A stretch of 64,000 nt of DNA from an uncultured Acidobacteriota bacterium (lineage in GTDB: Bacteria; Acidobacteriota; Thermoanaerobaculia; Multivoradales; JAGPDF01), in the NCBI GenBank assembly GCA_963803995.1, contig CAWDOT010000005.1:179154-243153 (forward strand), in the 5' to 3' direction. This document shows positions 6,900 through 63,006 of the stretch, piece by piece; position 1 is the stretch's first letter; each line of letters begins with the position of its first letter. The position numbers and the translations under genes were made by a program. The notes beneath the pieces are model-generated. The model did no database searches, was not told the DNA's origin, and saw nothing but the letters and a program-made list of their open reading frames with translations.

Positions 6900-8338
6900 A
6901 TGTCGACGCCGCTGCGCGATTTCCTGGAGATCCCCTACGACCAGCTCGAGGAGATGAACCTCGAGGCCAAGGCCGACCGTCTCGCCCGCAAGGACCCGGG
7001 CCGGATCCGCGACGCCCGCCTGAAGTACCTGGCGGACGAGAAGCGGGTCAAGGCGGTCACGGTCTGCTTCACCGACCTCGAAGGCCGTTTCCACATGCTG
7101 GACTACGACAAGAAGTTCCTGCTCAAGTCGCTCGGACAACCTGACCTTCGACGGCTCCTCGATCCGCGGCTTCTCGCAGCAGGCCGAGTCCGACCTCCGT
7201 CTCTCGATCGACTGGCCGCGCCTTCTACTGGCTGCCCGCCGACGTCTTCGGCCCCGGCAAGGTGCTGGTCTTCGGCGAGGTGCAGGAGCGCGACGGCACG
7301 CCCTACCGGGCCGACATGCGGGCGCGGCTCAAGGCTTTCGCCGACAAGCTCTGGAAGAAGGACGGCACCGTCGCCAACGTGTCGAACGAGATCGAGGGCT
7401 TCCTGTTCCGGGGCCGCGACGTCGAGCGCCGCTACCACGAGACCAGGGCCTTCGAGTTCGTCTCGACCGGCGGCTACTACCACTCGCTGCCCGGCGACGC
7501 GTTGCGCCAGTTCATCGACAGCGCCGCCGAGGTGCAGCGCGCGATGGGCTTCGCCAACGAGAAGGACCACCCGGAGGTCGCGCCCTCGCAGTTCGAGATG
7601 AACTACAGCTACACCGAGGCGACCGTCGCCGCCGACCAGGTCCAGCTCTACAAGCTGCTGTCACGCCAGGTCGCGGCGCGCATGGACCTCTCCGCCTGCT
7701 TCCTGCCCAAGCCGGTGGCGGGAGTCAACGGCAACGGCATGCACACCAACATGTCGCTGTCGCGCAAGGGCAAGAACCTGTTCTGGGCGGCCACCGGGCA
7801 GGACCAGCTCTCGGCCGCCGGCTGGAGTTTCATCCATCGCCTCCTCGCCAGCGCCAACGACATCTGCCTGATCCTCAACTCGAGCGTCAACGCCTATCGC
7901 CGGCTCGACCCGCACTTCGAGGCGCCCAACCAGATCAAGGCCTCGCCGATCGACCGCGGCTCGATGGTGCGCATTCCGCTCGGCAACGAGAAGTCCGCGC
8001 GCGTCGAGGTGCGCTCGATCGCGCCCGACGCCAACCCCTACCTCGCGATCTACGCGCTGTTCAGGACCGGCCTCGAGGGCCCGATCGCCGGGGAGGACAA
8101 CGACGGCAAGCGGCCGCGCACCCGGTTCCTGCCCGACAACATCTACGACGCCATCCGGCTCTTCAAGACGAGCGACTACGCGCGCGACCTGATGGGCGAA
8201 GAGGTCCACGGCAAGTATGCCGAGGTGAAGCTCGCCTCGGCCGAGCGCTGCCCGAAGGCCCTCGGCAGCCGAGTCAAGGCCTCGGAGGTGCAGTTCCACC
8301 ACGAGGTCACCAACCAGTACCTCTGGTCGATGTTCTAG
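6900..8338 (+). CDS. glnA: Glutamine synthetase family protein (GlnA-like), interrupted by two +1 frameshifts (near 7134 and 7220)
   Basis: N-term beta-grasp segment in frame 0 (VKAVTVCFTDLEGRFHMLDYDKKFLLKSL), FDGSSIRGFSQQAESDLRLSIDW in frame 1, catalytic domain in ORF 7262..8338 (EVAPSQFEMNYSY, NGNGMHTNMSL, NAYRRL, DRGSMVRIP). Confidence 0.75.
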
Positions 8339-8383
8339 ACCCGGGCGGGCCCACCCCCACCCCGTGCGCCGAAGGCGCAACCC

Positions 8384-8418
8384 GAGAGCCCGGTTCTCCG
8401 CAGGAGAGCCGGGCTCTC
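8384..8418 (+). terminator. Stem-loop downstream of glnA-like gene (no T-tract)
   Basis: gagagcccgg (8384..8393) / ccgggctctc (8409..8418) inverted repeat with 15-nt loop. Confidence 0.35.
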
Positions 8419-8445
8419 CGTCCGTATGGCTGAGCGTCCCCGACA

Positions 8446-8706
8446 GGAAAAGCAAAAGCCCATAGAAGGGAAAGCAGGACGGCCGCGGCGATTGCTGGCC
8501 CGTCACTCGCTGCGCAACCGCGCGCCACGGAGCCGCCCTCGAGCACAGCCCGCCGCCACGACCCGCAGGCCCCGCTGTCTCCGGGCCTCCAGGCCTCCAG
8601 GCCCCCAGGCCCCGATCACTTCGGACTCGGCTCCCACAAGGCCTGACCGACCCGAGGCCGCCCAGCCTGCCACCATTCCCTTAGATGGGCTTTTCAGCTT
8701 TTCAGC
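8446..8706. repeat. 261-bp element bounded by about 30-bp imperfect terminal inverted repeats (MITE-like or structured RNA)
   Basis: 8446..8475 ggaaaagcaaaagcccatagaagggaaagc versus reverse complement of 8673..8706 (gaaaagctgaaaagcccatctaagggaatgg). Interior has CTCCAGGC x3 tandem repeat. A third copy of the end motif lies at 62622..62650. Confidence 0.5.
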
Positions 8707-8750
8707 TTCTGAGCTTCGAGCTCTCGAGCCGCCCGCTTCCGCGTCGCGGA

Positions 8751-9764
8751 TCAGGGGGAGCGGCGGCTCCAGGCGCCGAAGGAGGCGCCTTCGAAGTTGT
8801 CGTAGAAGACGCTCGGATCGGACTCGAACTCGAGGATGTCGCCCGCGAGGCGGATGTCGATGGTCTCCGCAGCCGGAGTCAGCAGCGCGGTGGTCGTGGC
8901 CTCGAGCGTGAGCGGCCGGGTCACGCCGAGCTGGACGCCCGACGCCGTCGGCAGGTGGACGACGAAGAGGGCGCCGGGCACGGAGTTGAAGTCGTCGGCG
9001 GGCGAGTCGAACTCGATGCGCAGCAGGCCGGCCGCCGGGAAGGTGACCTGGAAGGTGACGCTGCCGTGGCGAGGATCCGATGTGACCTGCGGCGGCCCGG
9101 ACAGCACGTCGGTCGGATAGTGCAGCTCGATCACGCCCGATCCGAGATCGAACGGCTCGACCGTTTCGATCTCGACGTCGGCGCCGGAGCCCGGGTGGAC
9201 CCGCGGCCCGTCGATGCCGAGCAGGCGGTCGGTCGCGGCGGCGCGGATCGCGAGCTCGCCGGCGCGCGGTTCCCAGACGATCGGCTGCCCGTCCGGGTCG
9301 GTGAGGAAGAAGCCCGGTCCGAGGTCGACGATGAGGTCGAAGATCGCGCCCGGCGCGAGCCCCGGCTCGAGCGTGAAGAAGAGGACTCCGAAAATGCCGT
9401 CCTGGGCGTTGATCGACGCCGAGATCGAGGCGAACTGGGAGTCGATCGCCTGCGTCGCAGCGTCCCAGTCGAAGACCGGGATCGCGTCGCCCTCGGCGCT
9501 GAAGATCAGGCCGCCGTCGAAGCTCGCGAACGGTCCGGTGCCGAGGAGCGCCAGGTCGCCGGCCACCGGGCGCCCGACGCCGGAGGCGCGGACTCCGAGC
9601 CGCCCCTGACTGACCGGACGCGAAGCGTAGGTGCGCAGCACCACCGCGACCGGCCCGCCCGACTCCCCTTCCGCGTCCGAGACGCGCACGGTCAGCGGCT
9701 CGGTCTGGCCGGACAGGCGGCCCGCCCCGGCGGTGGCCAGGGCGAGTGCGATCGAGAACTGCAC
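8751..9764 (-). CDS. Secreted hypothetical protein (337 aa, signal peptide)
   Basis: MQFSIALALATAGAGRLSGQ signal-like N-terminus. Gly/Asp/Pro-rich beta-type sequence. Confidence 0.6.
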   Translation of the reverse strand: MQFSIALALATAGAGRLSGQTEPLTVRVSDAEGESGGPVAVVLRTYASRPVSQGRLGVRASGVGRPVAGDLALLGTGPFASFDGGLIFSAEGDAIPVFDWDAATQAIDSQFASISASINAQDGIFGVLFFTLEPGLAPGAIFDLIVDLGPGFFLTDPDGQPIVWEPRAGELAIRAAATDRLLGIDGPRVHPGSGADVEIETVEPFDLGSGVIELHYPTDVLSGPPQVTSDPRHGSVTFQVTFPAAGLLRIEFDSPADDFNSVPGALFVVHLPTASGVQLGVTRPLTLEATTTALLTPAAETIDIRLAGDILEFESDPSVFYDNFEGASFGAWSRRSP

Positions 9765-10042
9765 GCGCGCGCTTTCGGTTCATCTCGGGCCCTCCCGGCC
9801 CGCCGCGAGTCTAGACGAGCCTGCGGGGAAAGACAGCCGTCCGCCCCGAGTGGAACAGATTCGGCTGTTCCGCTCGCCGCCGGCCGCTGTCCATTCTCAT
9901 GCCGGCCGCCAGACCTCGCGACCGGCGGACGCTCGTCTCCCGCACCCCCCGCCGGAACCCCTCCCCCACCTCCCACCAGGCGCGGGCCACCGGAAGCGTC
10001 CCCGGGGCCCGTCGCCTCTCCCTCTGGATAGGATGGCGCACG

Positions 10043-12607
10043 GTGACCCCCCTCCGATCGGCCGTCACGAATCTCGTCCTGGCCCTCGCTCTCGGGGCAC
10101 CCGCCGCGGCGCCGGCCGTGACGCTCGAGCAGGCGCTCGACCACCACTACGCCGGCCGGATCGACGAGGCCGTCGCCATCTACCGCGCTCTCGTCGCGAC
10201 GCCCGGCACGCCCGCGGCGGACCTCGCGTCAGCCCACAACAACCTCTGCGTCGTCCACAACGACCGCGGCGAGTACGCGGCCGCGCTCGCCGAGTGTCGC
10301 GAGGCCGAGCGCGGCCGCCGGGCGCTCGGCGACCGCCTCCGGCTGGCGCACACGCTCAACAATCTCGCCCTGGCCCATCAGTACCTGGGCGACGCCGCGG
10401 CGGCCGAGGGCGCCTTCCGCGAGGCGCTCGCCCTCGACCGGGAGCTGGGCGAGACCGAGGACGAGGCGATCGTGCTCGCCAACCTCGCGGCGCTCGCGAT
10501 CGGCGGCGGGCGCTACGGCGCCGCGCTCGACGCGCTCGCCGGCGTCGAGGCGCTCACCGCGGCCCACGCCGGCGATCCCTGGGCACCCGAGCAGCGCCGC
10601 GTGGCGATGCTCAACCGGGCCGTGGTGCTCGAGCGCCTCGGCGCCCACCGCGAGGCGCTCGGCGGGCTGCTCGAGCTGGCGCGCGAACCGGAGCCCGATT
10701 CCCGCCACGAGGCCGCGCTCGCCGCCAACCTCGGCGTGATCTACCGCAACCTCGGCGATCCGCGCGCCGCCGCGCGCGAGCTCGACCGGGCCGCCGCGCT
10801 CTTCCGCGCCGAGCGGGACCGGGGCGGCCTGGCCAACGCGTTGCTCAACCGGGGCCAGGTCGCCGAGCTCCACCTGCGGGAGCCGGAGTCCGCCGAGCGG
10901 CTCTACCTCGAAGCGCTCGCCGAAGCCGAGGCGGGGGGGGATCGCGGCCAGCAGGTCCAGGCGCTGATCTTCCTCGGACGGCTCCGCCGCGGCGCCGGCC
11001 GCGACGCGGCGGCGGAGTCGGATCTGGGCGCCGCGCTCGATCTCGCGCGCGGGATCGACGATCCGGAGGCCGCCGCCGCCGCGCTCGGCGAGCTGGCGCG
11101 CCTCGACCGCGCGCGCGGCGACGGCGACGGCGCCGCGCGCCGCCTCGACGAGGCGCTGGCCGCGCTCGAATCCGTGCGCGCCGGCGCGCGGTCGAGCGGT
11201 CACGCCGCCGGCTACGTCGCCGACAAGCGCGCGCTCTACGCCGCCGCGGTGGATCTCGCCGCCGAGCGGGCGCTCGCGAGTGGCGCCCGCGCCGACGTGC
11301 TCGCCGCGCTCGCGCGGGTCGAGCGCGCCAAGGCGCGCGAGCTGCTCGACGCCCTCGGCGGCGGCACGCTCGAGCCGCTCGACGCCGCCGCGCTCGACCG
11401 GCTCGACCGGACGCCGGGCACCCGGATCGAGCTCTACCTGGGCGAGCGGCGGCTCTGGCGCTTCCGTCTCGGCGACGGCGGCGCGGCGCTCGCCGACGCC
11501 GGCGATGCCGCGACGGCGCTCGAGCGCGCGCAGCGCGTCCACGCGGCCCTCGGGCGGGGCGCCGCTCCCGCGCGCGCCGACCTCGACGCCCTCGGCCGCG
11601 ATCTGCTGGGCGGCCTGGGCGAGCTCTCGGGACCGCTGGTGATCGCCCCCGACGGCCGCCTGCGCTACCTCCCCTTCGAGCTGCTCGCGCCGCGGGAGGG
11701 CGCCCCGCTCGTCGAACGCGCCGAGATCGTGTACCTGCCCAGCCTCTCGGTCGTCCCCGTCCGGTCGGGGGGGGCGCGCGCCTGGAGCTTCGTCGGCTTC
11801 GGCGCGGTGGCGCCGCCGGCGCTCGGCGCTCGCGGCGGCCTGACCGCCGGACGCCTGCTCGCCGACCGCTTCGCCCTCGCGCCGCTGCCGGCTTCCGCGC
11901 GGGAGCTCGCGGCGGCGGCCGCGCGGCTGCCGCCACCCTTCCGGATCGAGCTCGAAGCCGCCGCGACCGAGGCGGAGCTGAGGCGGCGGGCGACGGAGGG
12001 GTCGCGCGTGCTCCATTTCGCCACCCATGCGGTGGTCGACGAGCGGCTGGAACCGGGCGCGGCGATCTTCCTGGCGCCCGCCGGCGAGGACGACGGCCTG
12101 CTGACCGCGGCCGAGATCGCCCGTCTGCCGCTCGCCGCGGATCTCGCGGTGCTCGCCGCCTGCCGGAGCGCCGTGGGCTCCGCGGCCGACGGCCGGGCGC
12201 TGTCGAGCCTGACCGGCGCCTTCCTCGCGGCGGGGGCGGGCGGCGTGGTGGCGAGCCTCTGGGAGGTGGGAGACGCGGCGACCGCCGCGTTCATGGAGCA
12301 GTTCTATTTCGGGCTCGGGCGCGGCCACACGCCCGCGGTGGCTCTCGCCCGGGCCAAGCGCAGGTTGCGCGCGGACCCGCGCTGGTCGGATCCCGCGCTC
12401 TGGGCGGCGTTCGTCCTGGTCGGCGATGCGCCGGCGGTCGCGCCCTCGTGGCGGCGCTTCCTGCCCGCGTTCGCGGCGGGCGCAGCGGCGGCCGCGCTGG
12501 CGCTCGCGGCCGCGCTCTACCGCGCCGGCTCGAGACGCAGGTCCGCGAGCTCGGACGCCGCCAGCTCGCGGCCCGACGCGTCGAGCGCCGAGACCCGCAC
12601 GCGGTAG
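10043..12607 (+). CDS. TPR-repeat + CHAT-domain (caspase-like peptidase) protein, with predicted signal peptide
   Basis: N-terminal TPRs (AAAEGAFREALALDRELGETEDEAIVLANLA...). C-terminal CHAT hallmarks (VLHFATHAVVDERLEPGAAIFLAP...LAVLAACRSAVG). In-frame GTG 10043 gives signal-like N-term TPLRSAVTNLVLALALGAPAAAPAV. The ATG 9899 extension is Arg/Pro low-complexity. Confidence 0.7.
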   Translation: MTPLRSAVTNLVLALALGAPAAAPAVTLEQALDHHYAGRIDEAVAIYRALVATPGTPAADLASAHNNLCVVHNDRGEYAAALAECREAERGRRALGDRLRLAHTLNNLALAHQYLGDAAAAEGAFREALALDRELGETEDEAIVLANLAALAIGGGRYGAALDALAGVEALTAAHAGDPWAPEQRRVAMLNRAVVLERLGAHREALGGLLELAREPEPDSRHEAALAANLGVIYRNLGDPRAAARELDRAAALFRAERDRGGLANALLNRGQVAELHLREPESAERLYLEALAEAEAGGDRGQQVQALIFLGRLRRGAGRDAAAESDLGAALDLARGIDDPEAAAAALGELARLDRARGDGDGAARRLDEALAALESVRAGARSSGHAAGYVADKRALYAAAVDLAAERALASGARADVLAALARVERAKARELLDALGGGTLEPLDAAALDRLDRTPGTRIELYLGERRLWRFRLGDGGAALADAGDAATALERAQRVHAALGRGAAPARADLDALGRDLLGGLGELSGPLVIAPDGRLRYLPFELLAPREGAPLVERAEIVYLPSLSVVPVRSGGARAWSFVGFGAVAPPALGARGGLTAGRLLADRFALAPLPASARELAAAAARLPPPFRIELEAAATEAELRRRATEGSRVLHFATHAVVDERLEPGAAIFLAPAGEDDGLLTAAEIARLPLAADLAVLAACRSAVGSAADGRALSSLTGAFLAAGAGGVVASLWEVGDAATAAFMEQFYFGLGRGHTPAVALARAKRRLRADPRWSDPALWAAFVLVGDAPAVAPSWRRFLPAFAAGAAAAALALAAALYRAGSRRRSASSDAASSRPDASSAETRTR

Positions 12608-13260
12608 AGCACGAAGGTCTCGAGCCGCGCCCGCTCCGTCTCGGTGAGGTTCCACTCCGGCGCGTCCGGCGTGGCGCCGAGCACCGGATTCCCGGCCACG
12701 TCGAGAATCTCGACGCGATAGCCCGCCGCGCCCGCGACCGGTTCCCAGGAGATCTCGAAAGGCGCCGCGGCGACCGTGCCGAGCGGCGTCGCCCAGGCGA
12801 TCGAACCGCCGCGCAGGGCGTCCTGGTACGAGCGCTCGGGAAGACCGGGGCCGCCGCCGTCGCGCACGGCCCAGAAGGAGAGACCGACCGCGAGCGCCAG
12901 GGCGGCCGCCGCCGCCCACGCCGTCCAGCGCCCCGGGGAGCTCACGGCGCGCCGCGGCCGCATCGGCAGGACCCTGGCGACCGGCGCCGGCTCGCCCCGC
13001 CGCCGCCGCTCGAGCTGCTCGACCACCCAGGCCACGTCCGCCGCCTCCGCCGCCGCCGGCGCGCGCTCGAAACCGCGCGCCAGCTCGAGCTCGGCGGCGC
13101 AGGCCGGGCAGGTGGCGGCGTGCGCGAGCAGACGCTCCCGCTCGGCCGCCGGCAGCTCGCCCGCGACGGCCATCACCAGGCGCTCGGCCTCCGGGCACGC
13201 ACCCCCGGTGCGAAGCGCCCCGGCCAGCGTCTCGATCGGGATCCGCCGCATCTCGTTCAT
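12517..13260 (-). CDS. Zinc-binding anti-sigma factor (ZAS-like), membrane-spanning
   Basis: MNEMRRIPIETLAGAL... with HAATCPAC motif and hydrophobic TM (AWAAAAALALAVGLSFWAV). Start overlaps ECF sigma stop by ATGA. 3' end overlaps CHAT gene by about 90 nt (convergent). Confidence 0.65.
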   Translation of the reverse strand: MNEMRRIPIETLAGALRTGGACPEAERLVMAVAGELPAAERERLLAHAATCPACAAELELARGFERAPAAAEAADVAWVVEQLERRRRGEPAPVARVLPMRPRRAVSSPGRWTAWAAAAALALAVGLSFWAVRDGGGPGLPERSYQDALRGGSIAWATPLGTVAAAPFEISWEPVAGAAGYRVEILDVAGNPVLGATPDAPEWNLTETERARLETFVLYRVRVSALDASGRELAASELADLRLEPAR

Positions 13261-13835
13261 CGCCCTTCCCCCTCGAAGTGGCGGCGGAGCTTGCGCTTCG
13301 CGCTCACGATGTAGGCCTTCGCTCCCGACTTGTTGGCGAGACCGAGCAAACGGTCGATCGCCGGCAGGCTCATCTCCTCGACGTAGTGCAGGTGCAGGAT
13401 CCTGGCTTCGGTGGCCTCGAGCTTCGCCGCGATCGCCTGCTGGAGGATCTGCCGGAGCTCGGTCCGGGCGAGCTCCTCGTCGACCGGCGTCTCGGCCGCC
13501 ACCGGCTCGGGTTGCTCCTCGTCGTCGAGCGAGACCGCCGCCCGCCGCCGGGCGGAGATCCCACGGTTGATCGAGACGCTGCGCGTCACCAGATAGAGCC
13601 AGGTCGCGAAGCTGCTCTCGAAGCGGAAGCCGTCGAGCCGCTCCTGCACGCGCAGGAAGACCTCCTGAGCCAGATCCGCCGCCTCCTCGCGCCGCCCGCA
13701 GACGCGCAGGCACCAGGCGGCGACCCGCGTCTGGTAGCGCCGGAACAGCACGTCCAGATAGGGCGCGGCGCCGTCCCGGCCGGCCGCGACCGCGGCGCGG
13801 ACCAGCTCTTCGTCGGCGAGGGTGTCGATCGACAT
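13257..13835 (-). CDS. ECF-type RNA polymerase sigma factor (sigma-70 family)
   Basis: MSIDTLADEELVRAAVAAGRDGAAPYLDVLFRRYQTRVAAWCLRVCGRREEAADLAQEVFLRVQERLDGFRFESSFATWLYLVTRSV... Regions 2 and 4 recognisable. Start at internal ATG 13833..13835. Confidence 0.8.
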   Translation of the reverse strand: MSIDTLADEELVRAAVAAGRDGAAPYLDVLFRRYQTRVAAWCLRVCGRREEAADLAQEVFLRVQERLDGFRFESSFATWLYLVTRSVSINRGISARRRAAVSLDDEEQPEPVAAETPVDEELARTELRQILQQAIAAKLEATEARILHLHYVEEMSLPAIDRLLGLANKSGAKAYIVSAKRKLRRHFEGEGR

Positions 13836-14051
13836 GGGGATCGGGGGGCGTCCGTCGCCGCGCGCCGCCACCAGGCGGAGGGGGACCGGAGGGGCGCTCG
13901 CCCGCTCCGGCGGCGAAGCCGGACGCCTCGCGAGCCTAGCCGATCCTGCCCGCCGCCCGGAAACGCGGCGGGGCTCGACGATCGCGGCGGCGGAGCTGGA
14001 AGGACGTCTCACGTCTCCCTGAGACAGCCCGCCGCCGCGAGTGGAACAGGT

Positions 14052-62527: not shown

Positions 62528-62684
62528 CCCGGTCCGCGCGCCGCGCGGCGGCCACCGGGGCTCCGGCGCGCCCGGCTTCGGCGGAAGCAGGAAGAAGAAG
62601 AGGAAGAAGAAGAAGCAAAGGCAAGAGCAAAAGCCCAATTAAGGGGAGGGGTGACACTCGAAGCGGCCGCTGGTCGGCCGGTAC

Positions 62685-62708
62685 GAGGGCGCCCCTCTTT
62701 CGTTTTCG
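62685..62708 (+). terminator. Rho-independent terminator candidate
   Basis: gaggg-cgc-ccctc hairpin followed by tttcgttttcg T-rich tail. Lies after the crotonase gene and a purine-rich tract. Confidence 0.5.
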
Positions 62709-63006
62709 AGGCCCCTGATCCGAGCCCGGACGCTGACACCGCCGCCGGATCGGCGACTCGGAGGCGCTTCCAGAAGAGGAGGTGGACGGCCCTCGCTCTG
62801 GACCATTTCCCTCACCACGGGCGATCCGCCCACCCTACCCCAGCCTCGCCAGGCACCCCCATCTATGGAGCTTCTCGCCGCGCCCGCCACGGCGGCCCCA
62901 CGGTCCCGAGCGCCCTGGCATCGCGCCTTCCGGTTGGGAATCGCACCTCCTCTCCGGTAGCCTTTCCCGGTCCAGTCCAGAACTTCGACAAGGAGCTCCC
63001 TCCATC

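Follow-up and report, generated by a model that had tools for sequence, protein, structure and literature searches.

The DNA considered here is a 64-kb window (the whole stretch that was analysed, 64,000 nucleotides (nt) with ~70% GC) from an uncultured bacterium of the Thermoanaerobaculia, a lineage of the Acidobacteriota. Its subject is a 261-bp inverted-repeat element, which we call element 1, lying between the stop codon of a glutamine synthetase gene (glnA-like; stop at 8338, plus strand) and that of a convergent gene for a protein of 337 amino acids (aa; stop at 8751, minus strand). The intergenic region from one stop to the other measures 412 nt, and the locus is composed of the following features.

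6900-8338, plus strand: glutamine synthetase gene (glnA-like), the upstream neighbour of element 1; Pfam Gln-synt_C, E=5e-69.
8364-8418, plus strand: two GC-rich hairpins (~8364-8381 and 8384-8418) right after the glnA stop, outside the repeat element.
8446-8483, plus strand: left arm, with the outer unit GAAAAGC, the core AAAAGCCCATAGAAGGG (8454-8470) and the inner part AAAGCAGG.
8484-8664, no strand assigned: interior, GC-rich and C-skewed (GC skew ~-0.3 on the plus strand), without coding signal.
8579-8611, plus strand: tandem repeat of CTCCAGGC, 4.1 copies, 92% matches, Tandem Repeats Finder (TRF) score 52.
8665-8706, minus strand: right arm, reading GAAAAGC-TG-AAAAGCCCATCTAAGGGAATGGTGGCAGGC on that strand, core at 8678-8694.
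8689-8729, plus strand: microsatellite with an 8-nt period, (GCTTTTCA)n decaying to GCTTCTGA/GCTTCGA, which overlaps the right arm and runs outwards.
8751-9764, minus strand: convergent 337-aa gene, recognised from its open reading frame (ORF) and GC content at third codon positions (GC3); no Pfam family, homologues P0241-P0261.

When the 412-nt region was aligned locally to its own reverse complement, positions 8447-8472 (GAAAAGC--AAAAGCCCATAGAAGGGAA) paired with GAAAAGCTGAAAAGCCCATCTAAGGGAA, the reverse complement of 8676-8703, at 24/26 matches with one 2-nt gap. The score of this alignment, 16.5, was reached by none of 300 dinucleotide shuffles (0/300; mean 9.7 +/- 1.3, maximum 14.5), and a 19-nt arm core has exactly two matches in the window, with 0 expected. 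A repeat search places the arm pair at 8454-8483 / 8665-8694. The original prediction, made from the letters of the sequence, had described near-perfect inverted copies in the intergenic region downstream of glnA; both the copies and their setting are confirmed, its count of 26/30 identical positions is about right if a gap is allowed, and its coordinates for the element are correct to within 1-2 nt. It had also seen no convincing ORF in the interior, which is borne out by the GC3 periodicity: this is 0.9-1.0 in the flanking genes and is lost between 8340 and 8740, so that the intergenic region around element 1 is non-coding. Two long ORFs that overlap the element, 8426-8911 (plus strand) and 8503-9783 (minus strand), lack such periodicity and were set aside as artefacts of high GC content. 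The tandem repeat that had been noted in the interior is indeed present, but at the 4.1 copies called by TRF and not at three. The array on the right flank is regular over 8689-8716 (GCTTTTCA x3.5 by TRF) before it decays to 8729; on the minus strand it is purine-rich, (NGAAAAGC)n, and its copy number varies among the related loci L245, L246 and L247 (related sequences are denoted by L and a number).

Element 1 is one copy within a small family, not described before, of non-coding inverted-repeat elements in this Thermoanaerobaculia lineage. It belongs to a family because a third copy of the arm core and relatives from metagenomes share the layout of its arms. The 14-nt arm core AAAAGCCCANNNAAGGG has three exact matches in the window, against 0.02 expected, and the third lies in element 2 (62584-62879), which like element 1 spans ~260 nt. 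Element 2 sits in a non-coding gap of 480 nt between the stop of an enoyl-CoA hydratase gene (62527) and the ATG of an M48 peptidase gene (63008). Its features are listed below, and a diverged inverted partner of its core, GGCACCCCCATCTATGGAGCTTCT, lies ~220 nt to the right.

62584-62628, plus strand: microsatellite, purine-rich (GAA)n/(RAAAGC)n, of varying length in the orthologues L129, L239 and L240.
62629-62645, plus strand: L-type arm core AAAAGCCCAATTAAGGG, the third exact match to the 14-nt core; nhmmer E=2e-11.
62648-62708, plus strand: GC-rich hairpin (62648-62695) followed by TCTTTCGTTTTCG, identified by a terminator-like match and by folding, and conserved in L129, L239 and L240.
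62848-62879, minus strand: R-type arm, GGCGAGAAGCTCCATAGATGGGGGTGCCTGGC on that strand, from the arm alignment; nhmmer E=2e-4, no microsatellite on this side.

Aligned with one another, ten arms fall into these two types. L-type arms consist of a microsatellite (RAAAGC)n, AAAAGCCCAWNNAAGGGG, 2-4 nt and GGTGCC, and R-type arms, read inwards, of GAAGCTCCATAGATGGGGGTGCC without a microsatellite. Element 1 carries two L-type arms; element 2 and the related element L117 have one arm of each type. The arm box, again read inwards, is AAAAGCCCA-NNN-AAGGG(G), often followed by GGTGCC, and the anatomy of the family can be described as two inverted arms of 30-45 nt with an outer purine-rich, slippage-prone (RAAAGC)n, enclosing 100-370 nt of GC-rich, strand-skewed interior, which is free to change and does so also by tandem duplication. 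The hairpin inside element 2 looks like the terminator of the upstream enoyl-CoA hydratase gene.

Scanning metagenomes with a 17-base arm pattern gave 85 matches, exactly three of them in high-GC relatives: L129, which is the orthologue of element 2; L117, a complete element (~155 nt) that lies downstream of a small gene weakly matching CdiI; and L144, where the arm stands at a contig end, ~160 nt from a divergent small gene. The left-arm core of element 1 is identical in L117 and L144. An arm profile detects element 2, L117, L144 and L129 at E = 2e-11 to 4e-4, and reveals no additional copy across ~150 kb of related DNA. Genome contigs were scanned with AAAAGCCCATNNAAGGGAA, a pattern too short for a collection of 596 Gb, and the 104 single matches, in unrelated taxa and of about the number expected by chance, showed no extended similarity. 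No high-GC or family-like match was found in viral contigs, and blastn against plasmids and phages gave only two marginal matches, at chance level, to unrelated plasmids (E=6e-3) and no phage match. Between copies, the interior cannot be aligned. In L246 (3864-4104) a GC-rich 66-nt unit is repeated 3.6 times (TRF) in tandem from the inner end of the arm, and the window interior holds one diverged copy of the same unit; L117 (1810-1925) has two units of ~56 nt that are visible by eye only and were not called by TRF. Tandem duplication seeded at the arm thus seems to be the main route by which the elements change in size.

Several further observations concern the arms and their distribution. Short-read contigs (L144, L245, L247, L240) stop inside or just after an arm, a microsatellite or an internal repeat, an effect that multi-copy or slippage-prone sequences have on assemblies, which lends indirect support to the idea that there are more copies per genome than are visible. 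A strong Shine-Dalgarno-like run is present in every arm when read inwards, such as AGAAGGGGGAGGTG in L144 (1554-1568) and AAGGGGAGGGGTG in element 2 (window 62641-62653; the corresponding run of element 1 is at 8466-8478); no start codon lies at a usable distance from these runs, and the strand opposite them resembles the 3' end of 16S rRNA (CACCUCC...CUUCU). Upstream of glnA in the close relative L002 (3778-4035) there are ~250 extra nt, between the terminator of a BON/LysM gene and the glnA promoter region, which the window and L001 do not have. In the middle of this segment stands an arm-like box, CAGGAAAAGACCAGAGAAGGGAAGC, with one mismatch to the 14-nt core. The segment may be a degenerate member of the family. 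Finally, a 31-codon ORF (62866-62961; MELLAAP...LR*) has its ATG inside the R-type arm of element 2; its length and stop position are the same in three orthologues, and L117 begins MEFLAAS there. It is probably not a gene, with a GC3 of ~77% as estimated by eye and a poorly conserved peptide.

The arms differ sharply from the rest of the element in how they evolve. Compared with the window, the orthologous locus in L246 is 58% identical at the four-fold degenerate sites of the adjacent gene (165 sites), which is near saturation for the base composition, and its interior (59%, 116/196) and microsatellite (62%, 18/29) are at a similar level. Its arm cores are 87% identical on the left (26/30) and 88% on the right (23/26, shared with L247). 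Because the arm cores are conserved at 87-88% while the interior and the four-fold sites are neutral, the arms are maintained by selection, with the interior and the microsatellite evolving at the neutral level. Such a combination is not the pattern of a decaying selfish insertion. The purine microsatellites, since they evolve neutrally, are probably slippage by-products of the AAAAGC end of the arm. Between orthologues the spacing of the arms ranges from 207 to ~375 nt. A like pattern, at a shorter distance, is seen in element 2, whose position is kept in L129, L239 and L240: its arm blocks are invariant in four orthologues, including a block of 28 nt in the R-type arm; the purine tract is of variable length, and 28 nt have been deleted from inside one orthologue. 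In L242 the element is absent, and a PAD_porph gene follows the hydratase gene after 13 nt.

The history of the glnA locus can be read from its relatives. L002, L108 and the distant L248 have the same two convergent genes with stop codons 7, 7 and 13 nt apart, respectively. In L245, L249, L246 and L247 (identity of the neighbouring protein to that of the window: 89%, 73%, 76% and 76%), the stop of the 337-aa gene is followed by window-type sequence: L245 runs into (GCTGAAAA)n, where its contig ends, L249 ends 14 nt past the stop, and L246 carries the whole region. What the empty site misses is all of the 405 nt between the stops, hairpins included, and not the 261-bp unit alone. By parsimony, the stops of glnA and the 337-aa gene would ancestrally have been 7-13 nt apart, and ~0.4 kb comprising the two hairpins and element 1 would have been gained once, in the ancestor of the clade formed by the window, L245, L249 and L246.

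The wider surroundings are also variable. A gene for a CHAT/TPR protein (Pfam; 9899-12607) lies beyond the 337-aa gene, and a stretch of 5.7 kb that includes element 1 and both of these genes (8353-14050) is missing from L001, where the PGI and transaldolase (TAL) genes come directly after glnA; the window has the PGI/TAL block again from 14051 onwards. The gene order in L248 is TAL-PGI-sigma factor-CHAT-337aa-glnA. Taken together, these gene orders indicate that the neighbourhood of glnA has been rearranged more than once. The best homologues of the glutamine synthetase are metagenomic (92-93% identical), and the named relatives are metagenome-assembled genomes of Thermoanaerobaculia/Acidobacteriota. 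Relative to L001, L002 and L108, the window glnA is split by two single-base insertions, with frame switches near 7131 and 7219, that is, two shifts inside 90 nt; neither insertion sits in a homopolymer run, and the protein collection holds no intact glutamine synthetase copy from the source genome. The gene is therefore either a very recent pseudogene or affected by indel errors in the assembly. The two hairpins after its stop include an inverted repeat (I3) of 16 nt that is 94% complementary, and the block is 80% conserved in L246 (56/70). No U-tract follows them; they are likely the glnA terminator region. Judged by eye, the N-terminus of the 337-aa protein resembles a signal peptide.

At the RNA level, folding of both strands of element 1, a check proposed with the original prediction, paired the arms each time, at -120 kcal/mol (z=-4.2) on the plus strand and -146 kcal/mol (z=-2.6) on the minus strand. 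The arm duplex of element 1 has 30 Watson-Crick pairs (-43 kcal/mol), and a duplex of 21-35 bp (-22 to -43 kcal/mol) is possible in all six elements and orthologues; for L117 the fold z-scores are -3.4/-4.4. The stem of element 1 is flanked on both strands by an A-tract (5') and a U-rich tract (3'), being followed by CUUUUCAGCUUUU on the plus and CUUUUGCUUUUCC on the minus strand, but it encloses ~200 nt. At the gathering threshold, Rfam finds only two tRNAs in the whole window, and permissive searches, at E<=10 for 8250-8900 and at E<=1 for L117, L129 and L144, yielded no credible match. ARAGORN likewise reports only two distant tRNAs in the window, and no sigma-70-like promoter was found in 8250-8850.

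We propose that element 1 is a member of a maintained family that was gained once at this locus, has kept its arms and acts as a stem at the ends of transcripts. To the whole of this proposal we give a probability of about 0.5. On this reading, element 1 probably functions at transcript ends and is not a mobile element that still jumps. Transcripts of one or both convergent genes would run into the element, which would form their distal 3' end. On either strand, its arms would pair into a stem of 20-35 bp with an A-tract 5' and a U-rich tract 3', closing the variable interior into one large hairpin. This hairpin could end, insulate or stabilise the convergent transcripts, by analogy with ERIC, Correia and REP/BIME elements. 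Such a role fits the position between convergent genes and the known action of those elements. A trans-acting factor probably also reads the arm box, which could be an RNA- or DNA-binding protein or a transposase-like one by which the family was once spread, since the same box recurs at unrelated loci and in other genomes, and a mere stem would not need this.

A number of results weigh against this proposal. First, glnA already has hairpins of its own upstream of element 1, and a simple terminator scan of 8250-8850 gave 0 canonical sites, the blank at element 1 arising because its 'loop' is ~200 nt and not 3-8 nt. Second, L246 and element 2 do not fold better than shuffled sequences, and in element 2 and L117 only one strand has the U-rich tract; for element 2 this is the strand antisense to the two adjacent genes. 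Third, the arm-core substitutions in L246 (C>T in one arm, C>A in the other) are not compensatory, the RNAalifold covariation terms are positive, that is unfavourable, on both strands of element 2, and assigning a strand from G-U versus A-C pairs and duplex energies gave mixed results, the asymmetry of arm pairing being inconsistent. Given the non-compensatory changes and the unfavourable covariation, the arms could be conserved as sequence motifs, and pairing is only a candidate for the selected feature. Finally, the related DNA inspected for copies amounts to ~0.2 Mb, which limits what can be said of copy number per genome.

The element could instead be an ordinary selfish miniature inverted-repeat transposable element (MITE), a non-autonomous DNA transposon that has its transposase elsewhere and no function at the site, and the original prediction had named the architecture of a MITE or foldback element. 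Much of that architecture is present: terminal inverted repeats (0/300 shuffles), a size of 261 bp where <~500 bp is usual for the class, a non-coding sequence and an intergenic position. At least two copies occur in 64 kb and relatives at unrelated loci, so that element 1 is not unique, as a search for additional copies had been meant to establish; the region is present or absent among relatives; and the contigs L144, L245 and L247 break in an arm, microsatellite or internal repeat, as repeats tend to make them do. What is missing are the marks of transposition. The additional copies had been expected to come with target-site duplications, and none is seen at element 1, element 2 or L117. At element 1 the flanks ...CCCCGACAG and AGCTTCTGAG share no direct repeat longer than 2-3 nt, the microsatellite blurring the outer boundary enough to leave room for a 2-nt duplication. 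The two copies in the window have unalignable interiors and are not similar over their whole length, the relatives without the element (L002, L108, L248) miss 405 nt and not 261 nt, and scans of genomes, metagenomes and viruses that required 16-17 exactly specified bases showed no pair of distant arms bracketing a gene or transposase. Strict membership of the MITE class therefore fails on target-site duplication, copy similarity, clean empty site and, within the limits of those scans, autonomous partner. With arm cores conserved at 87-88% against 58% at neutral sites, and no more copies in the ~150 kb of related DNA, we consider a purely selfish MITE unlikely.

The original prediction had also allowed for a long-stem structured RNA, and a stand-alone small RNA gene could run from arm to arm and end in the reverse-complemented box and a U-rich tract (...CCCUUNNAUGGGCUUUUGCUUUU). 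Arm pairing and fold z-scores agree with that suggestion, while covariation and Rfam give it no support. In its favour are the significant z-scores of element 1 and L117, the closing stem predicted in every member, the G-U pairs in the closing stem of L246 and of the element 2 minus strand, where one change in L239 turns a G-U into an A-U pair, and the greater stability of the minus-strand consensus of element 2 in RNAalifold (-79.5 vs -65.0 kcal/mol). The distal face of Hfq binds RNA of the ARN pattern, which the purine microsatellites (AAG)n and (AAAAGC)n match, and in such a gene the purine or U-rich microsatellites could serve as Hfq-type binding sites. Against it, the interior is conserved neither in sequence nor in length or repeat number, even among orthologues, the covariation terms are unfavourable, the arm pairing shows no consistent strand asymmetry, and neither a sigma-70-like promoter nor an Rfam family was found. 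We therefore doubt that element 1 is a gene of this kind.

A third possibility is that each convergent gene has its own box of the L type with an A-rich tract in the 3'-untranslated or downstream region, in which case the inverted repeat would be a by-product and the interior a spacer. L-type arms do stand 44-125 nt past co-oriented stop codons, those of glnA, the 337-aa gene, the enoyl-CoA hydratase gene, the L117 gene and L246, and the variable arm spacing, the non-compensatory substitutions in L246 and the neutral interior are all as one would expect. However, element 2 and L117 have an R-type arm without a gene on that side, although this arm is homologous to the L-type and, in element 2, invariant over 28 nt in orthologues; the arm in L144 faces away from the start of the divergent gene, and most genes in the window have no such motif downstream. 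Independent boxes thus seem improbable to us. Only tentatively, and with small odds, can it be suggested that the arm box together with the (ARN)n-like microsatellite is the recognition site of a trans-acting factor, so that the elements would form a new class of conserved RNA 3'-end or small-RNA modules of the Thermoanaerobaculia and not relics of transposition; they could, for example, be protein-sponge or Hfq-binding RNAs in which the tandem interior sets the number of binding units. An inverton, in which an invertase flips the interior at the inverted repeats, is very improbable: inverted repeats of ~30 bp around ~200 bp match the general layout, and element 2 and L144 are upstream of genes, but element 1 lies between two 3' ends with nothing to switch, its interior is unconserved and has no promoter-like site, the few available orthologues are all in the same orientation, the two genes checked (the 337-aa gene without a Pfam family and the CHAT/TPR gene at 9899-12607) do not look like recombinases, and in element 2 the arms have diverged too far to serve as sites for such recombination.

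Other known types of element were considered and rejected. A REP/REPIN unit would share the inverted doublet, but the box here has only a 3-bp CCC/GGG self-complement and no GTAG/CGTC tag. A canonical intrinsic terminator does not fit a stem that encloses ~200 nt, with 0 sites in 8250-8850. The retron msr/msd was rejected because the flanking genes, for glutamine synthetase and the 337-aa protein without a Pfam family, do not encode a reverse transcriptase, and the glutamine riboswitch and the integron attC were rejected on anatomy.

In well-studied bacteria, REP, ERIC and Correia elements shape transcript ends, mRNA stability and genome rearrangement. The Acidobacteriota are known largely from metagenomes, and no description of elements such as these in the phylum was found in Rfam or in a literature search for MITEs in Acidobacteria, which gave nothing relevant. 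The contrast between selected arms and an interior and microsatellites that drift and expand may help to locate the functional part of such elements. In practice, the element and its microsatellites break short-read assemblies, and in DNA of 70% GC they can pass for ORFs.

Among known systems, bidirectional intrinsic terminators share with element 1 an A-tract, a GC clamp and a U-tract (AAAAGCCC...GGGCUUUU) between convergent stops, but here the 'loop' is ~200-370 nt and not 3-10 nt, and a specific box recurs at unrelated loci, which is not required of terminators. REP units are palindromes of 20-40 nt tagged GTAG or CGTC; RAYT transposases mobilise REP/BIME/REPIN, and REP-type elements have roles in termination and in protection of mRNA 3' ends. 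The present elements are like REP/BIME/REPIN in being inverted doublets of a short conserved unit with a less conserved spacer, extragenic and often between convergent genes, and unlike them in that the arm box is non-palindromic (only CCC...GGG) and untagged and the spacers are much longer (100-370 nt). The REP classes have been surveyed (PMC3733652). With Correia elements and other bacterial MITEs the family has in common terminal inverted repeats of ~26-30 bp, a size of 100-260 bp and a place in intergenic regions that are often transcribed. The Correia elements (CREE), found in Neisseria, are flanked by TA target-site duplications, exist in hundreds of near-identical copies and keep a conserved interior, and they can form RNA hairpins that are processed or terminate transcription; here no TA duplications, near-identical copies or conserved interior were found, and it is the arms that are conserved in situ. 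ERIC/IRU elements, known from Enterobacteriaceae and Vibrio, are imperfect palindromes of ~127 bp without a known transposase or target-site duplication, and are believed to influence the stability of mRNA in the form of co-transcribed RNA hairpins. Like them, the elements described here are intergenic, non-coding imperfect palindromes that occupy various loci across related genomes and vary in presence between orthologous sites, conserved above neutral DNA and with size variants arising by internal insertions. Unlike them, they occur in a different phylum, have microsatellites flanking the arms, and are conserved in the arms only, the centre being neutral and tandemly repeated where ERIC is conserved throughout. 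The likeness to ERIC is one of function and architecture only. The family is best filed as a new one among the small intergenic inverted-repeat elements of bacteria, working most like ERIC or Correia/REP elements.

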